Shown: in pieces, positions 1 to 34,448 of the stretch | How the letters are laid out: each line of letters opens with the position of its first letter | Numbering within the stretch: the first letter of the stretch is position 1 | DNA from: Lobosporangium transversale | Lineage: Eukaryota | Assembly (NCBI RefSeq): GCF_002105155.1 | Contig: NW_019029004.1 | Location: 62,001-126,000 of the forward strand | Length of the DNA: 64,000 nucleotides | Direction of reading: 5' to 3' | Translations under genes and position numbers: made by a program | Notes under the pieces: model-generated | What the model was told of the DNA's origin: nothing | The model's input: only the letters and a program-made list of their open reading frames with translations | The model's database searches: none

Positions 1-2491
1 AGAAATTTCATGAGGGCAAAATAAAGTGAAAATAAAAATCGTAGTCAAATACAACCAATTGTATCTTTGCATAACTTTTTTATTGATTGGGTCTTTTTTA
101 CGAATCGCGCGATAAAATACAATAAAGCAAATCAGTTAAGATTATATACATGTACAGTAGTAAAATAAACAAAAAATAAAACACAAAATAAGGCAGAATA
201 TTTGGAAGATACGGTAGTAAATGAGAGGATGCTTATTTACAAAGCATCCTTGTAGACAATGTCCCGTATGTATAGCCCAGGTCTGAGATTAAGTTCAATT
301 GCACCCACAACACCGATATATGGATCCGTCTTCAGCTTAGATTGGTTCTCGCTGATGAATTGAAGCTGATCCACCTCAAGCCTACTGTATTGATCGGTAG
401 CGTACTAATAAGTCAAGCATGTATTCATCCTGATGAAAAATCGCTGGTCTGTTGAGCTCAAAGGACGAATCTGCAGCCTGTACGTGTAAAACTCCTCCAG
501 CTTGGCGTATTCTCGACTTTTCCTAGCTCGGCCATCGCCCTCACCTACATCCACCTCTAGCTGGCCGTTTTCGCTACCGTCATAGCTGTCACCATGAGGC
601 CCTGCAGAGGTTTGACCTGGCCTAGGCCATTTTTTATATTTTTTATATGTCCAGTCCTCGCCTTTTGGATGCAAGAGGTTATTATGGAGACTCTCGTGAG
701 CTGGATGAACCTCACTGGTTTTTTTCAAACCACTGGCTCTGCTTTCAATTATGATGCCTTGCTGAGAAACCTTACTACTGGCGCCAGCCATCAATAGCAC
801 GATTCCAGTTGATGAGAGGGCCTGTACTGCATTCGCCTTTGCCCTCTCCCCTCATGCTGAGGCCCAGCACGGATGACGACCTTCAGCCGCATGATATCCT
901 CGTGCGCACATTCTCTGACGTCTTTGAGCGTATGGGCTATCGGGTAGTGTAGTTCAAGGAGCTGCTGTGGTTACTGCAACAGGCCTTCATCAAGGAATCC
1001 CCGAAATGGTTATTACGGAGTCTTGCTTGCTGAGCAGGGTCATGAATGTGAGCGTGAGCCTGCAGGAACAGAGAGGCAGCGCCTTCAGTTGGCGTCATAG
1101 GATCAATCAGAGTACCAACCCTTTCAATGATACGAAGCGTGTACACTCCATATAGGTTGTTCGCAAGGTCTTTATCAAGGTTCACTTCCATGGACGTGAA
1201 CAAAAGAGCGCAGTTATATGCTTATATGTGTTAACGGAATAACTTACCTTGCGGCTCTGCCCATCAAGAAGTTAAACCAAGGCTAAGTGGAGGAATATCC
1301 ACTTGACCTCTCCCACAGCATAAAGGAAATTCTGGCCGGCTTTTACTACTGCGTTGCACACACATTCTTCAATAAACATGAAGGCACCGCAATAATGGCA
1401 ACTGACCATCGGTTCTAAGCGGTACCTATATTGCATAATATTGGAACCCGAAACGAAATCTTGCTGAAACCTTTTTCTAGCGGGTGGTAGAAAGTTGTCT
1501 TCGGCAAAGGAATTATCTTCGGTAGAAGGAGCATCCTCAACAGAAGGATCACCTTTACGCTCGTGTATTCTGAAGGTCAATGGTAAGTGGTAAATGGTAA
1601 TTGTGTAAGATTAAGTACACGCAATGTATAATACAGTATAATAAGCCAATAAAAAACCGAACAAAAAGTAGCACACCCTTGTCTTTGCACGGGTCTTTCA
1701 TTTTCATCTCCACCATCTTCAAAACAATACTTCGTGTGCACACAGGCCTAGCGCCATTTTGCACTGAGTTACTAACAACGCTATTAAAGCAAGCAGTAAA
1801 CAGGAAAAAACTAAGGATTAATAGTCTATTGCTGAGAAGAAAAAATCAAACCGTTGCAAATCAAACTCACCCTTTATTGCTTGAGCATGGTCTACATCTA
1901 CTCCTAGGCAACTGCAGATACTGCATTTATACACTGTAGGAGCTGGTTGACGGTGCTCGCCCTGCAGGTAAGTAATAATGATGGAGGGTTAAAAAAGAAT
2001 GACAAAATCTAATGAATATAAAATAGGAACCTTTGCCTTCGAATTGACCCAACATTCTGCACATCGTTGCTGGCAGCGTTATTCAAGTTATAGAAGGTAT
2101 ATAAGCTTAAGCTCAGCATGCACCAACCACTACCATGTCAAAAAAAATAAAATAAAATAAAATAAAAAAAAAGTTTTCTACGATTGTTAAATACCGAACC
2201 ACTCATTCTTCATTATTTGGGTATGAGCTGCGCACATGGCCTGGACGACTGCACCCACATACAGACGTGGAATGGAAGGGGGAGCGAGGCGATTGGGAAA
2301 ATCGTTCTGTCTTTATCAGTTGGAAAATATTATTAATGTTTAAATATTCCAAAAACATAAAAACAAAAAGATAAGAAGGCCTTACCACATTCCTTACATT
2401 CTGAGGGCATAGTCCTTGCCATGTCTGTCGCTGCTGCACAGGCTACATGCCATGAGGCGTAGCATTGAGAGGGATCTTTAACTAATATAGA
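1..2491 (-). mobile_element. Non-autonomous, internally deleted Helitron, copy 1 (3' end lies just outside the window)
   Basis: Broken minus-strand frames carry RepHel N-terminal motifs (CHYCGAFMFIEEC; FTSMEVNLD...GVYTLRI; SEVHPAHESLHNNLLHPKGEDW; EFYTYRLQIRP; DQYSRLEVDQLQFISENQSKLKTDPY) and a helicase-type C-terminus YIRDIVYKDAL* (stop 237-239); candidate 5' end A^TCTATATTAG at 2491. Confidence 0.88.
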
Positions 2492-4161
2492 TAATAAAAT
2501 CCAAAATAAAATAAAATAAAAATAAATGTAATAGTGGCAAAAGTAGAGAACAGTGGATAAACGTGAATTATATAGATGTAGTCCCTTCGGAAATAAACCG
2601 ATATTCTCCTCACCTAATGCAATAACAAAAATAAAGTTAAGCATTTAGCATTGGCGGGTATGCAAGCGAAAATGCTAGAATTTAACTGTTACACTAGATT
2701 GTTCCTCGCAGAAGAACTACGTAATGTAAATTATCATTCCCATAGTTTTAGATAGGCTTTCTAGCATTACTTTTGTAGTGTAGGAGGTACTCTTTTATGA
2801 TCATTACTTGGCTATTTAGCTACCTCTATTATAGACAATGCATCAGTATAGTACGTAGGTCCCTTGTCCTCTTTTTGTGAGGGAGATTGTGGGATTGAAA
2901 GAGAGCGAACAGTTGTTCATGTGGAGGTATGCGGGACGGCTGCTGGGAGATCAACTCGGTGGAGTGAGTCCCGTTAGACCAAGGACTTGAGCTTGGCTAT
3001 CCTTAGAATAGGACAAACACATCCTTGCTGCAAGAGCAACCTACATCAAGCAAGCACTACATCGAAGTTCGGCTGCAGTCTTAAACCTTTCTACCTCATT
3101 TTTCCTTTCTTCCCCTTTTTCCATCTCTATCAAGCAATGCAAGCAGGCAGAGCCGATTGGCCTATAAGCCCAGTCATATTCCTTCACCTGTTCTCCTCCT
3201 TGTAAGCCTCTTCAAACCTCCGTCTCACCGGACTTGCCATGCTTTGATGACCCATTTGGCAGGTGGCGAAGGTCTGACAGATGAATGTATGGAACATGTC
3301 TTTTTTTTTTCTTTTCAAATGAAGAGTGAAAGATATGTGAAGGTAAAGTGTGTGAAAGCAAGGAATGTGATAGAAGAAGGTGTAGAGTGGTAAAGTACGC
3401 TAAGAGTTCAGGCCATAATATGTATATACTCTCGCATCGTATATTGTTGACATGACTTTAAATGTGGGTATACCGTACTCAGAGTAGAGTCAGGCAAAAA
3501 TTTTTTGGTGTCGACATTTGCAATGAAGAGAGCACTACCCTTTATTTTCTCTTTTCATTTACAAATAAGATACCTCTTTATTTCCACCCAGGGAGCCATA
3601 TTGGGGCCAAAGCCACTCTCTGTAGCAGTCACTTTGCCTTCATGGCAGTCACATTTCGGCACGTGCAGACACCCTTTCGTTCCAATATGTAGGATGTTAC
3701 GTCACACTTGGGGCCAATTTAATCTTTAATCGCATGGCGTCTTGTGGAACAAGAAAAAAAATTTTCTCACACACACACACAGCATAGCCCAACCTTGAAA
3801 TAAAGGAACAAATTTTTCAATTGTCGCTCCTTTCTTTAACTTGCTTCACTTCATTTTTGCACTCTCCTCTTCCTTTTCTTCCTTTATCCTCTTTTTCACT
3901 TTTTTCTTATTTACCCCAATTTTGCCCATCAATTTTGCTCTTTTATTTATTCCAAGCCTTCATTCATTGCCTTTCCTTTCTTTCCTTTCTTTCCTTTCCT
4001 TTTTTTTTTTTCTTTTTTCTTTTCCTCCCTCAACTTCATCTCTAGACAATTTTGAACCATCCTGCTACTGAATTATCATCCTTAGCATTTTTATCAACCT
4101 TTCCCTATTTTCTGTCCTCCGCCTATTTACGCCCTTGTTTTTAAACAGGTTTGAAAACACA

Positions 4162-6588
4162 ATGGGAAGCAGCAGAACACCATCACGATGCCCATCACCT
4201 CGAACTGAACCGTATGAAAAGAAAGAAAGAAAAGGGGAAGCGAAGGAAGAGTCTTCAAGCACCAATGACCCTAAAATCCTCGAGCCAACCGAGCTAAAGA
4301 TTTTTTGTATTGTTGATGGAGAAGCTTCATGTTTTCCTGTAAATATTCCTTCTGATCGTTCAGTCGGCGAACTCAAGCAAGCCATCAAAGCAAAGAATAC
4401 CAATGCATTTAAGGACATCGACGCTTACCAGCTCACCCTCTACAAGGTCTCCATCCCTGACAAAGGCGAGGCTATCTTTGAGTCAGAAATCGAGTCAAAA
4501 GAGGCTCTCACAATCGCGTCAATGGAGCTTTGGGAGATATTTAATTCTGAACTTCCAAGGAAAACGATCCATGTTTTTGTCAAGCCACCGCAGCGAGGTA
4601 TATCTTTGGCTCTTGATGGACTGATTGTTGATATTTCCAGCTGATGAAGCTTGGTTTATATCTTAAACGGCCATGTGCATGATATCACCATTTGGTTTGT
4701 GTCTTGATAACTCAACATTCTTTCTCATTATTCGCTTTTGATACTTAGCTCAGAAAAGAAAACAAGATGGAGATTCTGGTGAGTGCTTTTGGCCGAGAAT
4801 CTGGTTATTGATCATTTTAGAGTGATGTGCAATAAATCAAAAATATTGACTTTGATCACTCTATCTCTTTTATCAGAGTCACCCTCTAAAAAAGCTCGTC
4901 CAAGTATAAGTAGAGATGCTCTTATGGATGCGATTACAGAAGCGGGGCTTGTAACGAAAGGGATAGTGAATGGTAGCCCTGCCATCTCGCGTCTAAGCTC
5001 GAAAGAGAGGGTCAAGCTGCTTTCGTACATGGGGGAGAGGTTATCAGTAGATAGTATTTACTACAGCATTATTAGCGTGGCTCGCGAGCTCCGAAATTCT
5101 GGTGGTATCAAGGGTTCCAAAATATTAGCAGATTATGTGATATCCAGTCTACCAGGGATGGATCTTCCGGTGATCGATGCGCAAGATCTATATGTAAGAA
5201 AGGAATTCAAGGATCTCTACGATTTAATCACCAAACAGTTTTGCAACGCTGAGGACGATGCACGAAACCGTATTGTTGTTACAGGGACGGCTGGTATAGG
5301 GAAGTCATCCTTTCTCATATATTTTGCCATCCGACTACTTGCAACCAGTACTGAGGATGATCCACCTATTGTCATCATCCAGCAAAAAGAGGATTCAATG
5401 TGCTACGCTTTTGGTGGGTCATCTACTGTTCAAAATGGAGATATAAAGGATTTCGCCGCCTTCCTAGACCTACCTAACACTTGGTTCCTAGTCGACAGCT
5501 CACCAAAGCCGGAGCTTAGGAAGGCTCGAACTATCTTCTCAGTATCACCAAAGACGTTATTTTCCGAGTCCAACATGTATCAAGAAATTGTAAAGAGGGT
5601 GGTATGGATTTATTACATGGCACCATGGGAGCTGGATGAGTTAAGACAGTGTAGAAAAATGGTTCGGACCTTTAACATCGTCAGCGAAGAATTTATGGTG
5701 GAACTCTATGAGAAGATAGGTGGTGTGCCAAGGTATGTTCTCGAGAAACCAGCGAGCCGACTGCACTTTAATAAAAAAGATCTTGATGGAGCTAGGAGGG
5801 TAGCATACAGTCGCGTAGAAGAAGCCCTCGACAACCTCAAGGATCCATTGAAGCTGTTACAATATTTTGAACAGGCCAAAGATTCACTACAATATAGCAG
5901 CCGACTTCTTCATCGTCGTCCAATAGGAGATCACCAGCAATTTGTGTTAGAGTGGGCCTCTAATCACATTCTCGAAAAGGTGTACGAAGCAGCGGACGAC
6001 AATACTTTTGATATGATATTGGATCGATTAGTCAATGGCAAAGTTGGAGTAGATCTAGGAGCTATGCTCGAGATATGTATACGTCGCATACTACGGAGAG
6101 GCGACTGTACCTTCGTGGCCAAGAGTCTAGATGTAGAGAAAAAGCAAGATATCACCATCACCATCGATGCCAAGCCGACGGTTAAATTCTTCGAAGCTTT
6201 TGATGTTTACAAGGAATCGATGAAAGGAGAACTATGGATCCCAAAAAGCAAGACTTTTGCCTGCGTTGATATGCTAATAGCGCCGAATTATCTACTCCAG
6301 ATTACGGTAAATGTAAAGCATGGTATCAAGAGTGAATCTTGCAAAGAACTTCTTAAAAAGCTTCAAGAAAAAAAGTGGATTCGCTCAGAGAAGGACGTTG
6401 TATTTATTTTTGTTGTTCCAAAAGCTAAGGCTGAGGAATATAAGAAACAAAAATTCAAGATTGGGGCTGGTCGGGTGGATCCTAAACCGACAAAAGAACT
6501 ATCAAGTATCAAGCAATATGTCATGGGGGTAGACTTAAACGCAGAATTACAGCGAGGTAGACTTGAGGGCAGAACTAAAGCGGTATAA
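4162..6588 (+). CDS. Crinkler (CRN/CR-effector) family protein, copy 1 (header A, linker X); exons 4162-4597, 4749-4778, 4877-6588, ~725 aa
   Basis: Ubl header IFCIVDGE...LKQAIK...LTLYKV...IHVFVKPP; Walker A GTAGIGKS; Walker B-like WFLVDS; YMAPWELDEL and GGVPRYV; REase-like WIPKSKTFACVD...LQIT...KHGI; GT-AG splicing keeps the frame. Confidence 0.9.
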
Positions 6589-6637
6589 AATAATAATTTG
6601 AGAATAGTACATCAAACTGCTTCCATAATAATTATAA

Positions 6638-9174
6638 CGAGCCGGAGACCGTGGCTTCGCCGCGGCCGGCTCTTGCCTTGCCTCGTTAGAAATTTCATGA
6701 GGGCAAAATAAAGTGAAAATAAAAATCGTAGTCAAATACAACCAATTGTATCTTTGCATAACTTTTTTATTGATTGGGTCTTTTTTACGAATCGCGCGAT
6801 AAAATACAATAAAGCAAAATCAGTTAAGACTATATACATGTACAGTAGTAAAATAAACAAAAAATAAAACACAAAATAAGGCAGAATATTTGGAAGATAC
6901 GGTGTAAATGAGAGGATGCTTATTTACAAAGCACCCTTGTAGACAATGTCCCGCATGTATAGCCCAGGTCTGAGATTAAGTTCAATTGCACCCACAACAC
7001 CGATATATGGGATCCGTCTTCAAGCTTAGATTGGTTCTCGCTGATGAATTGAAGCTGATCCACCTCAAGCCTACTGTATTGATCGGTAGCGTACTAATAA
7101 GTCAAGCATGTATTCATCCTGATGAAAAATCGCTGGTCTGTTGAGCTCAAAGGACGAATCTGCAGCCTGTACGGTGTAAAAACTCCTCCAGCTTGGCGTA
7201 TTCTCGACTTTTCCTAGCTCGGCCATCGCCCTCACCTACATCCACCTCTAGCTGGCCGTTTTCGCTACCGTCATAGCTGTCACCATGAGGCCCTGCAGAG
7301 GTTTGACCTAGGCCATTTTTTATATTTTTTATATGTCCAGTCCTCGCCTTTTGGATGCAAGAGGTTATTATGGAGACTCTCGTGAGCTGGATGAACCTCA
7401 CTGGTTTTTTCAAACCACTGGCTCTGCTTTCAATTATGATGCCTTGCTGAGAAACCTTACTACTGGCGCCCAGCCATCAATAGCACGATTTCCAGTTGAT
7501 GAGAGGGCCTGTACTGCATTCGCCTTTGCCCTCTCCCCTCATGCTGAGGCCCAGCACGGATGACGACCTTCAGCCGCATGATATCCTCGTGCGCACATTC
7601 TCTGACGTCTTTGAGCGTATGGGCTATCGGGTAGTGTAGTTCAAGGAGCTGCTGTGGTTACTGCAACAGGCTTCATCAAGGAATCCCCGAAATGGTTATT
7701 ACGGAGTCTTGCTTGCTGAGCAGGGTCATGAATGTGAGCGTGAGCCTGCAGGAACAGAGAGGCAGCGCCTTCAGTTGGCGTCATAGGATCAATCAGAGTA
7801 CCAACCCTTCCAATGATACGAAGCGTGTACACTCCATATAGGTTGTTTCGCAAGGTCTTTATCAAGGTTCACTTCCATGGACGTGAACGAAAGAGCGCAG
7901 TTTATATGCTTATATGTGTTAACGGAATAACTTACCTTGCGGCTCTGCCCATCAAGAAGTTAAACCAAGGCTAAGTGGAGGAATATCCACTTGACCTCTC
8001 CCACAGCATAAAGGGAAATTCTGGCCGGCTTTTACTACTGCGTTGCACACACATTCTTCAATAAACATGAAGGCACCGCAATAATGGCAACTGACCGGTA
8101 CCTATATTGCATAATATTGGAACCCGAAACGAAATCTTGCTGAAACCTTTTTCTAGCGGGTGGTAGAAAGTTGTCTTCGGCAAAGGAATTATCTTCGGTA
8201 GAAGGAGCATCCTCAACAGAAGGATCACCTTTACGCTCGTGTATTCTGAAGGTCAGTGGTAAATGGTAAATGGTAATTGTGTAAGATTAAGTACACGCAA
8301 TGTATAATACAGGTATAATAAGCCAATAAAAAACCGAACAAAAAGTAGCACACCCTTGTCTTTGCACGGGTCTTTCCATTTTCATCTCCACCATCTTCAA
8401 AAACAATACTTCGTGTGCACACAGGCCTAGCGCCATTTTGCACTGAGTTACTAACAACGCTATTAAAGCAAGCAGTAAACAGGAAAAAACTAAGGATTAA
8501 TAGTCTATTGCTGAGACGAAAAAATCAAACCGTTGTAAATCAAAACTCACCCTTTATTACTTGAGCATGGTCTACATCTACTCCTAGGCAACTGCAGATA
8601 CTGCATTTATACACTGTAGGAGCTGGTTGACGGTGCTCGCCCTGCAGGTAAGTAATAATGATGGAGGGTTAAAAAAAAGAATGACAAAATCTAATGAATA
8701 TAAAATAGGAACCTTTGCCTTCGAATTGACCCAACATTCTACACATCGTTGCTGGCAGCGTTATTCAAGTTATAGAAGGTATATAAGCTTAAGCTCAGCA
8801 TGCACCAACCACTACCATGTCAAAAATAAAATAAAATAAAATAAAAAAAAAGTTTTCTACGATTGTTAAATACCGAAATCACTCATTCTTCATTATTTGG
8901 GTATGAGCTGCGCACATGGCCTGGACGACTGCACCCACATACAGACGTGGAATGGAAGGGGGAGCGAGGCGATTGGGGAAAATCGTTCTGTCTTTATCAG
9001 TTGGGAAAATATTATTAATGTTTATATATTCCAAAAACATAAAAACAAAAAGATAAGAAGGCCTTACCACATTCCTTACATTCTGAGGGCATAGTCTCTT
9101 GCCATGTCTGTCGCTGCTGCACAGGCTACATGCCATGAGGCGTAGCATTGAGAGGGATCTTTAACTAATATAGA
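6638..9174 (-). mobile_element. Non-autonomous Helitron, copy 2 (both ends visible)
   Basis: 5' A^TCTATATT at 9174 (alternative 9260); 3' hairpin CCGCGGC-GAA-GCCACGG, 7 nt, then CTCG^T at 6638; same degenerate RepHel motifs. Confidence 0.88.
6649..6665 (-). terminator. Helitron 3' subterminal GC-rich hairpin (rolling-circle termination signal); repeated at 13349-13365
   Basis: Plus strand ccgtggc-ttc-gccgcgg, 7 bp stem with one mismatch, 11 nt from the terminus; this is the standard Helitron 3' layout. Confidence 0.8.
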
Positions 9175-10864
9175 TAATAAAATCCAAAAATAAAATAAAA
9201 TAAAAATAAATGTAATAGTGGCAAAAGTAGAGAACAGTGGATAAACGTGAATTATATAGATGTAGTCCCTTCGGAAATAAACCGATATTCTCCTCACCTA
9301 ATGCAATAACAAAAATAAAGTTAAGCATTTTAGCATGGCGGGTATGCAAGCGAAAATGCTAGAATTTAACTGTTACACTAGATTGTTCCTCGCAGAAGAA
9401 CTACGTAATGTAAATTATCATTCCCATAGTTTTAGATAGGCTTTCTAGCATTACTTTTGTAGTGTAGGAGGTACTCTTTTATGATCATTACTTGGCTATT
9501 TAGCTACCTCTATTATAGACAATGCATCAGTATGGTACGTAGGTCCCTTGTCCTCTTTTTGTGAGGGAGATTGTGGGATTGAAAGAGAGCGAACAGTTGT
9601 TCATGTGGAGGTATGCGGGACGGCTGCTGGAGATCAACTCGGTGGAGTGAGTGCCGTTAGACCAAGGACTTGAGCCTGGCTATCCTTAGAATAGGACAAA
9701 CACATCCTTGCTGCAAGAGCAACCTACGTCAAGCAAGCACTACATCGAAGTTCGGCTGCAGTCTTAAACCTTTCTACCTCATTTTTCCTTTCTTCCCCTT
9801 TTTCCATCTCCTATTCAAGCAATGCAAGCAGGGCAGAGCCGATTGGCCTATAAGCCCAGTCATATTCCTTCACCTGTTCTCCTCCTTGTAAGCTCTCTTC
9901 AAACCTCCGTCTCACCGGACTTGCCATGCTTTGATGACCCATTTGGCAGGTGGCGAAGGTCTGACAGATGAATGTATGGAACATATCTTTTTTTTTTCTT
10001 TTCAAATGAAGAGTGAAAGATATGTGAAGGTAAAGTGTGTGAAAGCAAGGAATGTGATAGAAGAAGGTGTAGAGTGGTAAAGTACGCTAAGAGTTCAGGC
10101 CCATAATATGTATATACTCTCGCATCGTATATTGTTGACATTGTGTGAATGGTATACCGTACTCAGAGTAGAGGTCAAATTTTTTTGAGCAAAAATTTTT
10201 TGGTGTCGACATTTGCAATGAAGAGAGCACTACCCTTTATTTTCTCTTTTCATTTACAAATAAGATACCTCTTTATTTCCACCCAGGGAGCCATATTGGG
10301 GCCAAAGCCACTCTCTGTAGCAGTCACTTTGCCTTCATGGCAGTCACATTTCGGCACGTGCAGACACCCTTTCGTTCCAATATGTAGGATGTTACGTCAC
10401 ACTTGGGGGCCAATTTAATCTTTAATCGCATGGCGTCTTGTGGAACAAGAAAAAAAATTTTCTCACACACACACACAGCATAGCCCAACCTTGAAATAAA
10501 GGAACAAATTTATCAATTGTCGCTCCTTTCTTTAACTTGCTTCACTTCATTTTTGCACTCTCCTCTTCCTTTTCTTCCTTTATCCTCTTTTCACTTTTTT
10601 CTTATTTCACCCCAATTTTGCTCCCATCAATTTTGCTCTTTTATTTATTCCAAGCCTTCATTCATTGCCTTTCCTTTCCTTTCCTTTCCTTTCCTTTCCT
10701 TTTTTTTTTTTTCTTTTTTTCTTTTCCTCCCTCAACTTCATCTCTAGACAATTTTGAACCATCCTGCTACTGAATTATCATCCTTTAGCATTTTTATCAA
10801 CCTTTCCCTATTTTCTGTCCTCCGCCTATTTACGCCCTTGTTTTTAAACAGGTTTGAAAACACA

Positions 10865-19971: not shown

Positions 19972-20793
19972 AATAATAATTTGAGAATAGTACATCAAAC
20001 TGCTTCCATAATAATTATAATGTAGAATGACAATATATTCAATAAATAGAAGAATAGAGGCTGGAAGTAACACTGTAATATTGGGTACCAGAATAGCTTA
20101 AGATGTCTTTGTGACTTGGTAAAAGGAATATTTCCAAGCAACTCTCGAGGCTGAACAGCTTATACTTCATCAGGTTACCAAAATCTCTGTCTGGATATTT
20201 CCTTACCATCCTGTGCTTTTACAGAGACTCTGCACACCAATTTCACCACTCTGGTGATTTTACTGCTACCACTAGATTTGCCCGAGAGAAATATTTATCT
20301 GGTGGGTAGACTCGCAAATGCATTCTATAAAAGAAAATAAAAGAAAAAAAAAATATTGGGAAGTCTACCCACCGCTATGCGCATAATACAGGCCTGCCAA
20401 AAATGAGAAGGTTTTAGACATCAGTGATGTTTGCCAGCTCGCTCTTTGAGTAGTTCTGAATCTCTCTGGTAACGTGGTTACCGATAGAATGACTACATGG
20501 CGATTATGGTTACTGGGTGTCCATATGTCAAATAGTTTACATCCCTGACAGCTACAGACATGTACACAATCAAATCACGCCGTTGATCCATTTCGCATAG
20601 TGATTCTAACCGCAACGTGTTTTATGATACAGTTTAAGTAAGCTGTGAGAATCACTGCTTGTACGGCAAAGTCCTTGAGTCCTAAATAGGTATCCATTCT
20701 GGTTAGGCGTAAGTCAATTACAGATTTTCAAAAAATAAAGTTCCTGGTTCCAGGAATTTGACTTTCATTTCATTCTTTCAATGAGTGCTAGCT

Positions 20794-23700
20794 TTAAGTT
20801 ATCGTCGTCGCATGACTTCTTGATTGTGGTCGATACCATTGGCCAGGTGGCGGTACCGGTGGCAGATCAAGCAGCTTCACAGATCCGGCGCTATCTTTCG
20901 GAGGCCCAAAACCCCTAGTGTGCTTGCTCTCATCCCTGTTCTTTTCATTCTTCGAGTCTGCTTTGAACCATAGCAAATTTGGATTCAATTGTTCTGAAAA
21001 ATCGAATTTACTTCGAGCCTTTGGAGGCTGATCCCTTGACCATGTTTCTACACCCACCTTGAGTAGTGGTATCTTGGTTGAGCGACCTGGCCTCTCTTCA
21101 ATATCAGGCGTCATGTCAGGGACATAGCCATCATGATCATCATCGAAGTAGTTAGGATATTCATGTCTGTTTACATCCTTATCGATGTCGCGATTATAGT
21201 TGACAAATACAGCGTCTAGGCCTCCCATAATCTCCTTGTCAATGTCGTCATCTGATAATGAACGAGGGTAAGAGTGGGCTGAATCTTTAGGAGCAGAGGG
21301 AAAGGGGCTTGGCAATGGTTGGTATGAGGCTGTAGTTGTTCTCCATTTTTCGTTCTTGTTGGACACAGCTGAGTTACTTTTCATTGACAGTCGAGGCGGT
21401 TTGTTGCGGTTGGCCCCAACTGGAGAGTTACCCAAACTGTTAAAGTCCCTGTCACGACCACTATATACCTCATTATCGCCATCATCATCGTCCTCACTAT
21501 CACTAATCAAGAGTCTACGTCTGTGGCCAGTATTTTGACCGCTAATACTTTGGCGGCCTTGGGCATGGAGATGCTCAATATCCTCATCGTCGACTGTGGA
21601 TGACATGTAAAGATGACTCTTTGATAACTGGTTTCTCATGTCATCTCCCTTTGTAGCCTTTGATGACATCTTCCCTCTAAACCGAGAGACTACGTCCGGT
21701 ATTGAATCACTGGCTCCAAGTCCAGACGGACCCCATCGATCAATAAGTGCTTGCATTCGTCTTGAATACGGGTCTACATCATCTTCCCCGGTAGGAAGGC
21801 CCACCATGGCGGCTGATAGGGATTGTCCAACCCTCGCTTTCGCAATTCGTTTAGCAGATTCTACGAAATCAATCGTGCGACTAGAATGTCCAATTTTGTA
21901 CGTACGGTCTAACGTTGTTGCTGCTTTTTTCATCTCACCCCTCAAAAGACTAGTGCAGGCGCTTTTAAATGTAATTTTTCGGATTTCGCGCTTCGGTATC
22001 CGGTATGTTTGTTGAAACCGAGCTGTCTCTTGTGAATCCAAAAATGCGCTCTGAAGTTTAGGGCCGCTTATTTGAACTGAGTTATCCTCTCCTAGTTTTC
22101 TGCGCTTTCGAACCGTAGTAGGCGTGACATAGGCTGGAACATTGATGTGAACTAAATCGCATGTCGGAGGTGGACCTTGTGGTAATATTCTGGGTGAAGA
22201 AGAATAGTACTGAATGGTAGTTCCTTGTGAGATGGCGCGTTGTACAGTTTTATATGAAGTTTGGGACCTGCGGTACTTTTGCTCCTCCTGTCCTTCAGCG
22301 AGTAAGAGGCAGATCTTACCCTTGCGTTTCCTTCCTGTACGACCCATTCTTTGTAACTAAAATAAATAAATAAATAAATAATATTCAGGGAATAAGTAGC
22401 GGACGACAAATAATAATATTAATAATAAAAAATAACATTCTCCATAAGCCAAAAAAGTGCAGACTTTAGAGCTTACCATGCGGATGGGAGATGAATGACT
22501 ATCATAACAGACAATAAGGTCTACGTCTCCGATATCTAATCCTTCTTCTCCAATCGAGGTTGCAACAAGAACATTATGGTTGCCTTTTTGAAAATCAGCA
22601 ACAACCTAAATGAGAAAAGTGAATGAGCTTTATACATTGGTCTATGGATGCACTCCAAATTGGAAAAAAAAAAAAAAGAGACCCACTAACCTTTTGCTGT
22701 TCTTTTTGTGAAATACCCTTCTTGCCTTTAGCTGTCGCTTGCCCAATGAAGCTCTGGACCTTAATGAGTGGGCGATGATGCTCCAAAACGCGACTGATCT
22801 CTTCTACAGACTCACGATAGTTCGCAAATATCATAACTCTGGTCTGAGGAAGAGGGCCGTCCTCACTGACACCGGTGCTAGATGACGCTGCTGATTCCGC
22901 TCTGGCCTGTATGAGTATATCCTGCTCATCCTGATGATCAATAAAATGTTGTACGACTATCCCAACCAACCTTTCCAACTTTGGATGGCTCACAAAGCTT
23001 GATTGTTTCATCTTGATACGGATACTGTCCATCATTCGAATAAAGTCGGGGATTTCCATCATGGCTTTTCGAGCAAGCGAAGGTCTATTGTCGTCGTCGT
23101 TGTAATCGATATCATATTCACCTCGTCTTTTCTTTGATCCTGAAACGTTTTTATTTGTAGCGTTATGGTTGCTGCTATTGGTAAATGGGTCCATGTTGAC
23201 AAAGAAGGGCTTAATGCCATGAATGGTGAGCAATTCATAAGCATGTACCAAGCCCATGCATATTCCAACTTGTTTTTGAACATAGGCTTTTCGTGCATTG
23301 TTCCCTGGATTGTTCATCACAAACGCGTCTCTCCCTTGAAGGAGCACGAAGCGTGTCAATTGGCTGGGATCCGCAGTTCGAATGACGTTTTGCTTGACAA
23401 GACTGTCCAAGAATGGTCTCATCATCCTGAAAAACTTATCCCTAATCTCTCCAACTTCTTTACCACACGGAACAATCATCTCTTGGACAGAACGTTTGAA
23501 TACGTACTGCTGCAAGTCCATCGAGTCCTCTGTTCGTAACTCGATTTTTGCGATTTTTAGGTTTCTGACGACTGTTTGTACCGTTTTGATATCACTTCCA
23601 GGGGTTGCAGTCAGCGCCAGGATGCGTACATCTCTATTCAAAGGCTCCAGCTGCCGAATCACCTCTGAATAAGCATAACGGCCTGTGGCGCGATGAGCTT

Positions 23701-24919
23701 CATCCACTACTAGACATACAATATCTTCTGCGGGGCAGATACCAGATTTGAGGTCATTTTGAAGCACTTGCGGTGTACAATAGATGACCCTTTTTATCTG
23801 CCACATCTCTTTTCGAATCTCTGCGTTTTGTTGACCTGTCATCTCCACAGTAACATCCTGAGGAATTCCACAAACATTAAAGCAGGCTTCGATCTGTTGA
23901 TTGACTAAAGGCTTTGTTGGTGCCATGAAAATAATTTTAGATTTAGGAAACCATCGAAAATAATTGAGCATTACGACTGCTGCAATAAATGTTTTCCCAA
24001 GACCCGTTGGAAGCGAAACCAATGTATTTGTGAAGAGCGCACGGCGAATGATGTTGTACTGATAGTCACGCCTTGGGTAGTTGACCGGGTATTGCCAAGT
24101 AAGAGCAGCACGTTTGTCGATTAAGTGATGTGTTGCAGGCTGATCCGGCTGCGTCCGTGCTTCTGGACTACGGAAGATATCCTCTGCAAAATCGTTCAGT
24201 GGGTCAGACCGGGGAAGGACGTTGGGAGGTAGTTGTGCTGTAGGTAGTGAGTTGGAAGTGGAAGCAGAAGTGGGTGAAGAACTAGTTGAAGCGTCACTGT
24301 TTAAGAAGTATGAAGAAACGTTTGAACTGGATCCTTGTCTATTGAATCCGTGTAAACTGTTGTTCGTGCTTGTCTGCGCTTTCTGCAAAACTGGGGTGTT
24401 TGAATTTGTGTTGGTTCGATTCTCTGCGCCACCAAAAATTGAAAAAAACCTTACTGGTTGTTGCTGTTGTGGAGGAATAGGCGCTCGCACCTGTTGTATT
24501 GATGGTGAAATAAATGAGGTATTTGATCCTGTTTTAGGAGCCGAAGATATTGATGAGGATGAAGTATCGTCCAAGAGGTCATTGTCAAGCAGAAGATCAG
24601 TATCTTGTAGATCGCCAAACTCTGCAAAGTCATCCTGTTCGGCCTGAGTAGTTGTCGTCACAGTGGGAGTGTTTTTGAAATAGTGAGCAATACTGGGGTT
24701 ATTTTGATTCGAGACAGGGAAGTTCTTTTTGGAGGATACCGTAGAGTTCGGTTTAAGGTCCTTTTGATTTCGCACATGCATTACGTTTGTTGCTGGACCA
24801 GAGACGTGAGCATCATTCTGGTTGCTTGTTTCTTCCAGCAAGGCTCTCTCTTCACGGTCTAGCTCAAGTACATCCAGATCTATGTCAAAGTCAAAGTCAT
24901 CGTCAGTTGTGAGTGCCAT
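20794..24919 (-). CDS. MPH1: FANCM/Mph1 DEAH-box DNA helicase; exons 24919-22691, 22605-22477, 22356-20794
   Basis: [63 protein letters not shown]. Confidence 0.95.
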
Positions 24920-25100
24920 GGTGGTTTTTTGCTCCGGGTTTAGCACTGAATGACCAGAGTAGCTTTATTGTATTTATGAAAGAGACAAGGACAAATCATA
25001 CATGCATTCAACTTCTTAGAGTGAATGAACGAACTTTTTTAAAAAAATGTACTTTATTTGACTGTCTTTTCAGTTTTCACAAATGATGAGACAAAGTCGT

Positions 25101-32128: not shown

Positions 32129-32160
32129 CTAAATATACGGGACTTCCTGGTATCCGTGTA

Positions 32161-33763
32161 CAGTGGTCATCAAAAGTCATTCAATGATTTTGAATTTTTA
32201 ACATTCTCATTCCTTTTCTTCATTCTCATCTAGCATGTGGCTAGTATATTTGGGGTAGTGCATTTGTTCCCCACACCTCATGATTACTTTCAAGTCTCAT
32301 TCCTAATTATGACTTCATTGTGAAATAAAACCAATTTCAATTTGACCTGCCTATTGAATGACTTCTGCTGAATTTCAATGTTGATTGCAAAAAAAATTTT
32401 TTCACTTCTCTTTTTTCTACCAAGATTACCTTCAGCTATATCTTCATACACCTCTACTTACAATTAACATTCCACATCGTTTAGTATTTATTATGAGGAC
32501 GCTTTCTATGGAAAAGGTACAAAATGCTCAGGCCTTACTTCGACAAGGGAAGTCTACAAGCGAAGTGGCAAGGCAACTTGGTATCTCTATTTCATCGGCA
32601 ATAAGGATCAGGAGTGACGTCAAGGACAATATTCCTAAACCCAGAATGGGCAGACCCTCATTGGTTTCGCCTGCTACCAAGAGGGTTATTGCACGCGAGG
32701 TTGATACGGGGAAACTTAGATCCATTCTGGCAGTTCAAGAATACATCAGATCGAGCCATGGAGTGCATGTCAGTGTAGAGACTGCCCGACGCTATGTAAA
32801 ATCAGAGGGTTTGAAAAACTATGTCCGCCCATTCAAGCCTAGGCTGACAAAAATGCAGATTGCGAAAAGGAAGAATTTTGCCCTCAACCACCTTGACTGG
32901 ACTGTTGATGACTGGAAGCGAGTGATGTTCTCGGACGAAAAGCTTTTTGAAAGGCTGGGGTCCTTAGGAGGAAGAACACAATATAGGCGACCCGGCCACA
33001 GGACTTTAGAAGATCGAGATGTTAGAGAGAGATCAAGGGGAGCACATAACAAACTTATGTGGTGGGGCTGTATCACTTATCATGGTGTAGGCGATGGTTG
33101 CAGGATCCCTGTCACAGTTGATTCCTCTTTATATGTTGATGTTCTACAAGATTATGTCCTCGGCTCATGGAAGTGGTATGGCCAGGACTCTGAAAAGTTA
33201 ATTTTTCAGCAGGACAATGCAAGTGTTCATACGAGTAGGATGGTTAAAGAGTTCTTAATTAAGTCACACATTACAACTTTGGAGTGGCCTCCAATTTCTC
33301 CTGACCTCAACCCTATCGAGAATGTATGGGCCTACATGGATCATCGGCTCAAGGGATATGAGAAGGTACCAAAGGATCTGGATGAACTATGGGAAAGACT
33401 ACAGGATATCTGGACATCTATTCCACCTGACTTCCTTGATGAGCTATATGAAAGTATGCCACGAAGGGTAGAGGAGCTACATCGCATGAAAGGAGGTCGT
33501 ACACATTACTGAAGAACAGAAAAAAAAACAAATAAAGCAAAGCTCCTGATTTTCTTCAAATGTCATTCAATGAGATGCCAATAATCGGCATTCATCTAAA
33601 TTTTCAATTAGCAACAGGAGCTCATTGACATTGTTGTAGGAGTGACGTTGTCGATGGTCAAACTCGCTACGTAAGTTTCATTAGCGACAAGCAAGATCAA
33701 ATTGGAGAAAGGAATGAGAATGTCGAAATTCCTAATTCACTGAATGACTTTTGATGACCACTG
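32161..33763 (+). mobile_element. Intact Tc1/mariner (DD34E) DNA transposon, 1603 bp
   Basis: Perfect 23 bp outer TIR CAGTGGTCATCAAAAGTCATTCA inside a 56 bp imperfect TIR; TA at 32159-32160 and 33764-33765. Confidence 0.97.
32493..33512 (+). CDS. Tc1-family transposase, 339 aa
   Basis: HTH (SEVARQLGIS), GRP, WKRVMFSDEK, FQQDNASVH, WPPISPDLNPIENVW; 34 residues between second D and E; no stops. Confidence 0.96.
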   Translation: MRTLSMEKVQNAQALLRQGKSTSEVARQLGISISSAIRIRSDVKDNIPKPRMGRPSLVSPATKRVIAREVDTGKLRSILAVQEYIRSSHGVHVSVETARRYVKSEGLKNYVRPFKPRLTKMQIAKRKNFALNHLDWTVDDWKRVMFSDEKLFERLGSLGGRTQYRRPGHRTLEDRDVRERSRGAHNKLMWWGCITYHGVGDGCRIPVTVDSSLYVDVLQDYVLGSWKWYGQDSEKLIFQQDNASVHTSRMVKEFLIKSHITTLEWPPISPDLNPIENVWAYMDHRLKGYEKVPKDLDELWERLQDIWTSIPPDFLDELYESMPRRVEELHRMKGGRTHY

Positions 33764-34448
33764 TATCATCGTTCATGGTGACCCACCGAGTTTTTATTTA
33801 TTTATCAGTTCATCCTGACAAAAGGCAGCACTCTGAATTCTAGGCCCGTCCATCCTGTCCGCCTGCGTCTGTAGCGCGACCGGGAGACTTCCGCTTCGAA
33901 AAAAACATTTTTGATCGCCTTTATTTCATATGAATGGTAATATATTTCGCTAACACTTCCGTATAAAAGTCTTTTCTACAAAGTCATAAGTGGTACAAAC
34001 GGATCAAGGGGCAAACATTAAGGCAGCTACAATGGATCTTGAACCGCGAGGCGATGTCTTATATATCAAAGCCCCATTATTCAAAACTATTGGATAACAA
34101 GCGCATTTCAAACTGTGCAGGAACCGCAAAGATATAATGTTGCAGTCGTTAAATATTCATTATTATCGATATAAATAAATATATAAATAAATAAGAATTC
34201 AAATCATATGTCAAATGAACCATGACGAATCTTGTCCTGTCAAATGAAGGTTATTTATTATTATAATTGTTTTTCTTTTTTTTTTTTTTTTTTTTTTAGT
34301 TATGATTATGTGATGCGATACAATGCAAAAAGAATATGACACGTTGTATTGTTTGCTTCAAAGACTTTGTCATCAATAGCGCTACAAACTCAATCCGCCA
34401 TATCACTGTATGATTTTACTTGGCCCTTGGACCCCTAGAATGTGAAGT

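Follow-up and report, generated by a model that had tools for sequence, protein, structure and literature searches.

A 64,000-bp stretch of Lobosporangium transversale DNA (RefSeq assembly GCF_002105155.1, contig NW_019029004.1, positions 62,001 to 126,000; hereafter the window) opens with three head-to-tail units of about 6.7 kb that are about 98% identical, each joining a minus-strand Helitron remnant with homology to RepHel to an intact spliced gene of the Crinkler (CRN) family (Table 1). One and the same A|T target site occurs within this single genome in a filled and in an empty form, the Helitron 3′ end filling it behind CRN in units A and B. The empty site and its flank follow CRN in about four genomic copies, which argues that CRN is a resident gene hit by the Helitron and not cargo carried between canonical ends. 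The history favored here, with a probability of roughly 0.55, is insertion of the Helitron behind CRN followed by read-through copying of the gene with its promoter; a copy without the Helitron would then have served for re-entry or for unequal crossover. The host, a culturable soil fungus, belongs to the Mortierellaceae (Mortierellomycota).

Table 1. Features of the array and its right-hand flank, in window coordinates.
Feature	Position	Strand	Remarks
Unit A	1..6637	.	initial 50 bp outside the window
Unit B	6638..13337	.	6700 bp
Unit C	13338..20020	.	6683 bp
Helitron copy A	1..2576	-	non-autonomous; candidate 5′ end 2576; 3′ end outside the window
Helitron copy B	6638..9260	-	candidate 5′ end 9260
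Helitron copy C	13338..15949	-	about 2.6 kb long; A|TC at 15949 as candidate 5′ end
RepHel N-terminal remnant, copy C	13676..15099	-	aligns with residues 226-530 (approximate) of a 1557-aa RepHel; at least 3 reading frames, 5 stops inside matches
Helitron 3′ end, A/B joint	6638..6665	-	same hairpin as at the B/C joint, 11 nt, CTCG
Helitron 3′ end, B/C joint	13338..13365	-	7-bp-stem hairpin 13349-13365, 11 nt, terminal CTCG, then target T
CRN upstream region	15950..17553	+	in every unit, about 1.6 kb; likely promoter (inferred role)
CRN gene A	4162..6588	+	exons 4162-4597, 4749-4778, 4877-6588; 725 codons
CRN gene B	10865..13288	+	exons 10865-11297, 11449-11478, 11577-13288; 724 codons; header diverges over about 10976-11177
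CRN gene C	17554..19971	+	exons 17554-17989, 18236-19971; 723 codons; intron and linker of its own, about 17990-18546
Empty A|T target site	20020..20021	.	49 bp past the CRN stop; in units A and B occupied by the Helitron 3′ end
CRN 3′ flank ("tail")	20021..20392	+	AATAAA at 20041; other copies diverge past 20392
DEAD/DEAH helicase gene	20794..24964	-	single-copy, depth baseline

Three mosaic units in tandem

Self-BLAST of the window gives a 6.7-kb period across positions 1-20020. Positions 1-11357 align with 6688-18046 at 98.0% identity over 11,412 columns, and a 1,511-bp block (5127-6637 or 11827-13337 against 18510-20020, 99.2%) ends exactly at 6637, 13337, and 20020. The period and boundaries of the three near-identical units seen in the initial annotation are thereby borne out. 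Its placement of the DNA in an early-diverging fungus also holds, since the core of the flanking helicase is 100% identical to an L. transversale protein (the other 22 matches reach at most 77%); a piece of the Helitron is 91% identical to another L. transversale protein. The array had further been thought to run on past the left edge. The window merely begins 50 bp inside a Helitron 3′ end, which does not bear this out, whereas contig depth, which points to about 6-7 joints genome-wide against two in the window, speaks for further copies.

The uniformity of the copies implied by the same annotation did not survive: the units are mosaics with distinct header, linker, and spacer blocks. Unit B stands apart from A and C by a block in the header, where 27 codons are replaced and 7-8 changed synonymously across residues 38-106. 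Unit C departs from A and B by 219 substitutions running from the intron after the HVFVKPP motif through the linker, and unit A differs from the other units in the spacer. Over the final 470 codons of CRN the units differ by 2-6 codons, the toxin module being about 99% identical. Several further continuations at the intron after HVFVKPP appear among contig loose ends. This mosaicism agrees with the recombination hotspot described at this boundary in PMC5289972. The block structure itself is plain, and it suggests ongoing exchange between the units.

The Helitron remnant, its 3′ end, and the empty site

No Pfam family is matched directly by any of the nine minus-strand pieces scanned (0/9). However, a 94-aa piece recovers 52 relatives, and among the nine of these that were scanned, chosen mostly by length, Helitron_like_N is found in five and PIF1 in addition in three. 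The pieces align with the N-terminal region of complete RepHel proteins (E as low as 2e-23), colinearly in all three units, so that the Helitron identity first proposed is upheld through these relatives. Of a 1557-aa RepHel, only residues from about 209 to 530 are represented, and the matches end about 60 residues into Helitron_like_N. By this mapping, the Rep catalytic part and the PIF1 helicase are absent from the remnant, and the element does not qualify as autonomous. A contig across 14087-14962 differs from the window by one letter, hence the four stops located there are genuine. The element was rightly called decayed, being stop-ridden, and is in addition a deletion derivative lacking the Rep catalytic part and the helicase; judged by its sequence, it is a dead, internally deleted Helitron. 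It is filed only as a Helitron1-like derivative, its CTCG end failing the CTRR pattern.

The array boundary coincides to the base with the Helitron 3′ end. A scan of the 64 kb finds such ends only at 6638 and 13338, exactly at the two joints. A hairpin 10-12 nt before the 3′ end is a described Helitron feature (PMC5148889), and A|T is the preferred Helitron target (PMC4778049). The joint hairpin has a fold z of -2.07, with an equally good fold in 6/200 shuffles, and the CTCG end is found in the window and in contigs of 4/4 runs. Judged from the 3′ side only, the element went in between A and T, and the target was not duplicated. Instead of CTRR|TC the joint has CTCG|TT and runs into the CRN 3′ region.

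What normally follows CRN? Loose ends on 19880-20600 in four of four DNA runs show only the Helitron end past 20020 and one shared continuation past 20392. No loose end lies ahead of 20021, therefore the tail always follows CRN. With its AATAAA 21 bp in, the tail resembles a native 3′ region, and no CRN-free copy of it appears in the contigs. CRN together with its tail is thus itself duplicated, with no Helitron end at the 20020|20021 boundary.

Some further observations concern these sequences. The hairpin at 13349-13365 is perfectly paired in contigs of 4/4 runs and has one mismatched pair in the window copies. A contig present in runs X1 and X2 matches the terminal 41 bp only and then diverges (loose end past 13378), the pattern expected of a second element sharing this end. 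All other tail copies past 20392 share one sequence of at least 255 letters; this includes, in AT-rich surroundings, a TC preceded by A, which might mark the start of another element. For this locus, a true Helitron 5′ end at the far end of the tail was considered and rejected, there being no A|TC at 20392 and a single continuation shared by the other copies. The tail also holds a small inverted repeat (20301-20373; 19-nt arms, 84%) around an A-run.

Copy number and assembly

Depth was scaled to the contig of the single-copy helicase (8.8, 10, and 123.1 in X1, X2, and X3, short-read contigs from three studies that may be of the strain the window came from), and the resulting ratios are estimates, not strict copy numbers. 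On this scale the Helitron stands at 8.7-11.5, a Helitron variant class at 4.3-5.6, the CRN toxin part at 8.3-9.3, and the C-type linker at 5.7-6.5. The joint (5.6-7.2) and the tail (3.5-4.3) add up to the CRN 3′ end (9.4-10.0). Promoter-proximal CRN sequence (17146-17298) reaches about 25-35 times single-copy depth (308.1, 281.6, and 3060 at 17196 over the three baselines), a family far larger than the roughly ten copies of the present class.

These figures bear on whether the array could be a single copy expanded by the assembler. Unit B carries 17 one-base indels relative to C, all beside an identical base and likely long-read errors; the B and C spacers show no differences, and several B/C alleles are absent from short-read contigs. 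However, contigs from three DNA studies contain the joint, at roughly 6-7 times the single-copy level and in stretches with only 24-26 letters on the short side; it recurs in an RNA-like run, and CRN stands at 8-10x. Moreover, the units are distinguished by their header and linker blocks, and the contigs include both types of linker. An assembly expansion is therefore very improbable and largely refuted, and the multi-copy state initially proposed is upheld by contig depth. The order and number of the units may still be wrong.

The same depths are also relevant to the strongest form of the view taken in the initial annotation, in which the whole 6.68-kb unit would be one composite Helitron with CRN as cargo, starting with TT at 20020 and laid down as a rolling-circle concatemer at A|T. 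The Helitron and CRN (8.3-10.0) are similar in depth and may therefore always travel together; each joint runs from a 3′ end to a unit start, an A precedes that start on the minus strand, and non-canonical ends exist among fungal Helitrons (PMC5148889). On the other side, the start is TT and not TC, and the flank past 20020, with its nearby AATAAA, follows CRN in all of about four copies and has no CRN-free counterpart. Given the CTCG|TT joint and a native-looking flank after the empty site, neither capture of the gene within a pair of Helitron ends nor a simple rolling-circle concatemer is supported, and even the composite element is improbable.

The second breakpoint and the proposed order of events

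Had the Helitron entered this A|T site, the tail would be expected past its 5′ end. Nothing in the unit corresponds to the tail except A-runs, which places the second breakpoint in or at the 5′ part of the Helitron. Among the 47-48 A|TC sites of each unit, the best (2576/9260/15949) has a 5-bp match to the empty-site flank and the AT-rich start that is typical of Helitron 5′ ends. As a candidate 5′ end, this site would give a 2.6-kb element and put the rearrangement at the element's own end.

In the favored history, a non-autonomous Helitron of about 2.6 kb would have entered the A|T site with its 3′ end toward CRN. A nick at the Helitron 5′ end, followed by read-through of the degenerate CTCG by a transposase likely supplied from elsewhere, would then copy CRN and about 1.6 kb of upstream DNA, closing where that upstream DNA now meets the Helitron 5′ end. 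The resulting circle or concatemer would recombine with a CRN copy lacking the Helitron; alternatively, this step would fall to unequal crossover. Either way the last copy would keep the empty site. Swaps of header and linker between the units, recorded in their mosaic blocks, would complete the sequence and may be continuing. Read-through, circles, and A|T preference have been shown by experiment; with an intact element, about 11.7% of events captured sequence by read-through, and the new ends included CTAC (PMC4778049).

Several points weigh against this history. The 3′ end is CTCG and not CTRR, and the window and contigs show no autonomous RepHel, circle, or independent whole-unit insertion. 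The 5′ end was chosen post hoc: a 7-mer match arises in 149/2000 shuffles, and in 14/2000 if an AT-rich start is also required, a condition set after seeing the site. There is a second 5′-end candidate at 17078, and no contig branch is found at 15949 among the 24/180 loose ends listed. Depth is alike (about 10-12x) on both sides of 15949. The depths fit equally well arrays opening with native upstream DNA plus 4-5 dispersed Helitrons (the variant class) and arrays opening with a Helitron. The left end of the array lies outside the window. Finally, only about 10 of some 25-35 promoter-proximal CRN copies belong to the present class, and an origin of the entire CRN family through Helitrons is therefore not demonstrable.

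Alternatively, the Helitron may have been a passenger, inserted 3′ of CRN and then carried along by tandem duplication (through microhomology or a tail deletion) and unequal crossover, with no later transposase step. Block mosaicism requires homologous exchange in any case, the 5-bp match at the second breakpoint suits microhomology repair equally well, and tandem CRN clusters with domain swaps lie beside other transposon types in Phytophthora agathidicida (PMC9667082). Such a course would, however, require a coincidence, the duplication breakpoint landing no more than 5 bp from the candidate Helitron 5′ end, and no allele carrying the Helitron plus the full tail is seen, the tail always standing directly after CRN. 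We consider it unlikely, and prefer read-through copying from the inserted Helitron.

The CRN gene and its predicted product

The CRN gene was described as uninterrupted. Its frame is indeed intact, with no internal stops in the spliced frames of A, B, and C (723-725 codons), but the gene is not continuous: in A and B, introns of 151 and 98 bp flank a 30-bp exon, and C has one intron of 246 bp. The C splice is present as a GT..AG joint (17987-18234, +2) in run X5, where the A/B mini-exon splice appears as a loose end. This run is taken as RNA-like, a guess at its origin, with spliced joints present. Besides the spliced forms it includes the Helitron-CRN joint, so CRN copies at the joints are transcribed as far as X5 is RNA. 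The X5 CRN contig covers 13338-13398, that is 61 letters inside the Helitron end, and stops just ahead of an AATAAA at 13407; the element may therefore supply the transcript 3′ end.

The Crinkler identity first assigned is confirmed by the N-terminal ubiquitin-like (Ubl) header, PF20147, above cut-off in 3/3 copies (E 3e-22 to 6e-16). Following the motif definitions in PMC5289972, the LxLFLAK-like motif reads LTLYKVS and the HVLVxxP-like motif HVFVKPP; a phase-1 intron lies at the header boundary. No hydrophobic signal stretch or signal peptide is visible by eye in exon 1. The last exon has 77 homologues, and the named ones are nearly all from Mortierellaceae. In an alignment, the Walker A K is kept in 41 of the 42 rows that have a residue there and the Walker B D in 46/46. 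The predicted model (pLDDT 84.5) matches AAA+-type folds over about residues 61-371, for example 1d2n_A (Z 10.2, rmsd 3.7, 196 aligned). The CRN protein is accordingly predicted, from conservation and model, to have a P-loop NTPase.

The last domain conserves E (37/41), D (41/43), Q (39/43), T (44/44), and H (40/44), the Q and T in a Q-x-T pattern, and is laid out in the model as helix-strand-strand-strand-helix-strand. This combination of E, D, Q-x-T, and H resembles the PD-(D/E)xK core. Look-alikes of the domain in the Atlas are an oomycete cluster (0.95) and a cluster with RHSP on 14% of its members (0.92). Whole-model fold searches gave NTPase folds only among the rows listed and no nuclease fold, and the domain-only model was poor (pLDDT 33.6); a PDB sequence search with CRN gave no significant match. 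As no nuclease fold match was obtained, the label of a C-terminal restriction endonuclease (REase) stays at likely. The product is predicted to be an NTPase-regulated nuclease toxin, with a role in microbial conflict or against invading DNA more likely than that of a classical plant effector.

The last CRN exon is 84% identical to a protein of Haplosporangium sp. Z 27 and at most 57% identical to the listed L. transversale paralogues. A quick tree (49 rows) places CRN with the Haplosporangium sp. Z 27 protein and Entomortierella lignicola. Horizontal transfer was considered and dropped, the tree pattern fitting shared descent within the Mortierellaceae.

Relation to known systems

Helitron-associated, tail-to-head CRN copies are in print for Phytophthora infestans (PMC5289972 and PMC9667082, both citing Haas et al., 2009), as the initial annotation had noted for oomycetes. 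The likeness of the P. infestans CRN (DC-domain) genes extends to a hypothesis of Helitron-mediated evolution and to swaps at the HVLVxxP boundary. There, the cited passages give an association; here, in a Mortierellomycota fungus, both states of the A|T site and the hairpin end can be placed to the nucleotide. The pairing and the tandem layout are thus already known, and what is new is the fungal group and the unusually clean filled and empty sites. CRN-like gene spread with hAT elements has been described in fish (PMC12957317). No literature on L. transversale Crinklers or on expansion of CRN effectors in Mortierellaceae was found, in a search whose coverage leaves out most subscription journals, and none of the Helitron and Crinkler papers listed is titled on Mortierellaceae. 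Among metagenome relatives, RepHel homology or DNA of this Helitron occurs in 0/12 loci, a weak negative since the loci are distant (21-60%) and many are short.

A comparable arrangement and model have been described for ToxB-HLE of Pyrenophora tritici-repentis (10.1101/2025.11.13.688278), where tandem effector units carry a Helitron 3′ end only at the junctions of duplicated copies and the terminal copy retains the original end, and where the model combines insertion, rolling circle, and unequal crossover. ToxB-HLE, as described, lacks RepHel sequence and has a T/T site. The present array differs in its RepHel remnant, 11-nt hairpin spacing, A|T site, and CR toxin cargo; the first three give direct support for a Helitron origin, unlike in ToxB-HLE. 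With Helitron1/HLE1 (Helraiser; PMC4778049, PMC5148889, PMC11417382) the element shares RepHel homology, 3′ hairpin spacing, the A|T target, and a read-through mechanism of capture. It differs in ending with CTCG instead of CTRR, in a joint that is not CTRR|TC, in lacking the catalytic and helicase domains, and in having only a candidate 5′ end.

The predicted protein resembles the CR (Crinkler-RHS) proteins with Ubl, NTPase, HTH, and REase parts (Zhang et al., 2016, via PMC5289972) in PF20147, the boundary motif, the P-loop NTPase, the conserved acidic and Q-x-T residues of the last domain, and look-alike clusters from oomycetes and RHS proteins. It differs in having no visible signal peptide, an REase fold that is only predicted, and a phase-1 intron at the header boundary.

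A second pairing may exist in the same species. On a 426-kb contig of L. transversale, the gene model of protein P0001 fuses the Helitron remnant (91% over 82 aa) with a different CR-like NTPase module, which falls in an Atlas Crinkler cluster (0.92, TM 0.62) and shows no BLASTP similarity to the toxin part in the window. A CRN paralogue, P0028, likewise lies on a 426-kb contig. P0001 probably represents a further locus at which a Helitron and a CR gene adjoin, and the association may thus have arisen more than once.

Other features of the window

The helicase gene to the right of the array is one that we take to be of the MPH1/FANCM type. A Tc1/mariner-type element (32159-33765) has terminal inverted repeats of 58-85 bp and an uninterrupted 375-aa frame (DDE_3, HTH_Tnp_Tc3_2) and is possibly intact, and a gene for a Ydc2-type mitochondrial resolvase lies on the minus strand at 56420-57727.

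Implications

Helitron-driven amplification of CRN has been a hypothesis since the P. infestans genome. With a filled site, an empty site, a RepHel remnant, and recent mosaic copies in one genome, the order of events becomes testable. The same pairing in a fungus far from the oomycetes suggests convergence. Tentatively, and against the odds as they stand, a Helitron with a leaky end might act as a reusable duplicator of CR toxin genes in Mortierellaceae, its circles carrying an expressed CRN with its promoter back into CRN loci and feeding swaps of header, linker, and toxin. The array is a snapshot of header and linker exchange between neighboring toxin genes.

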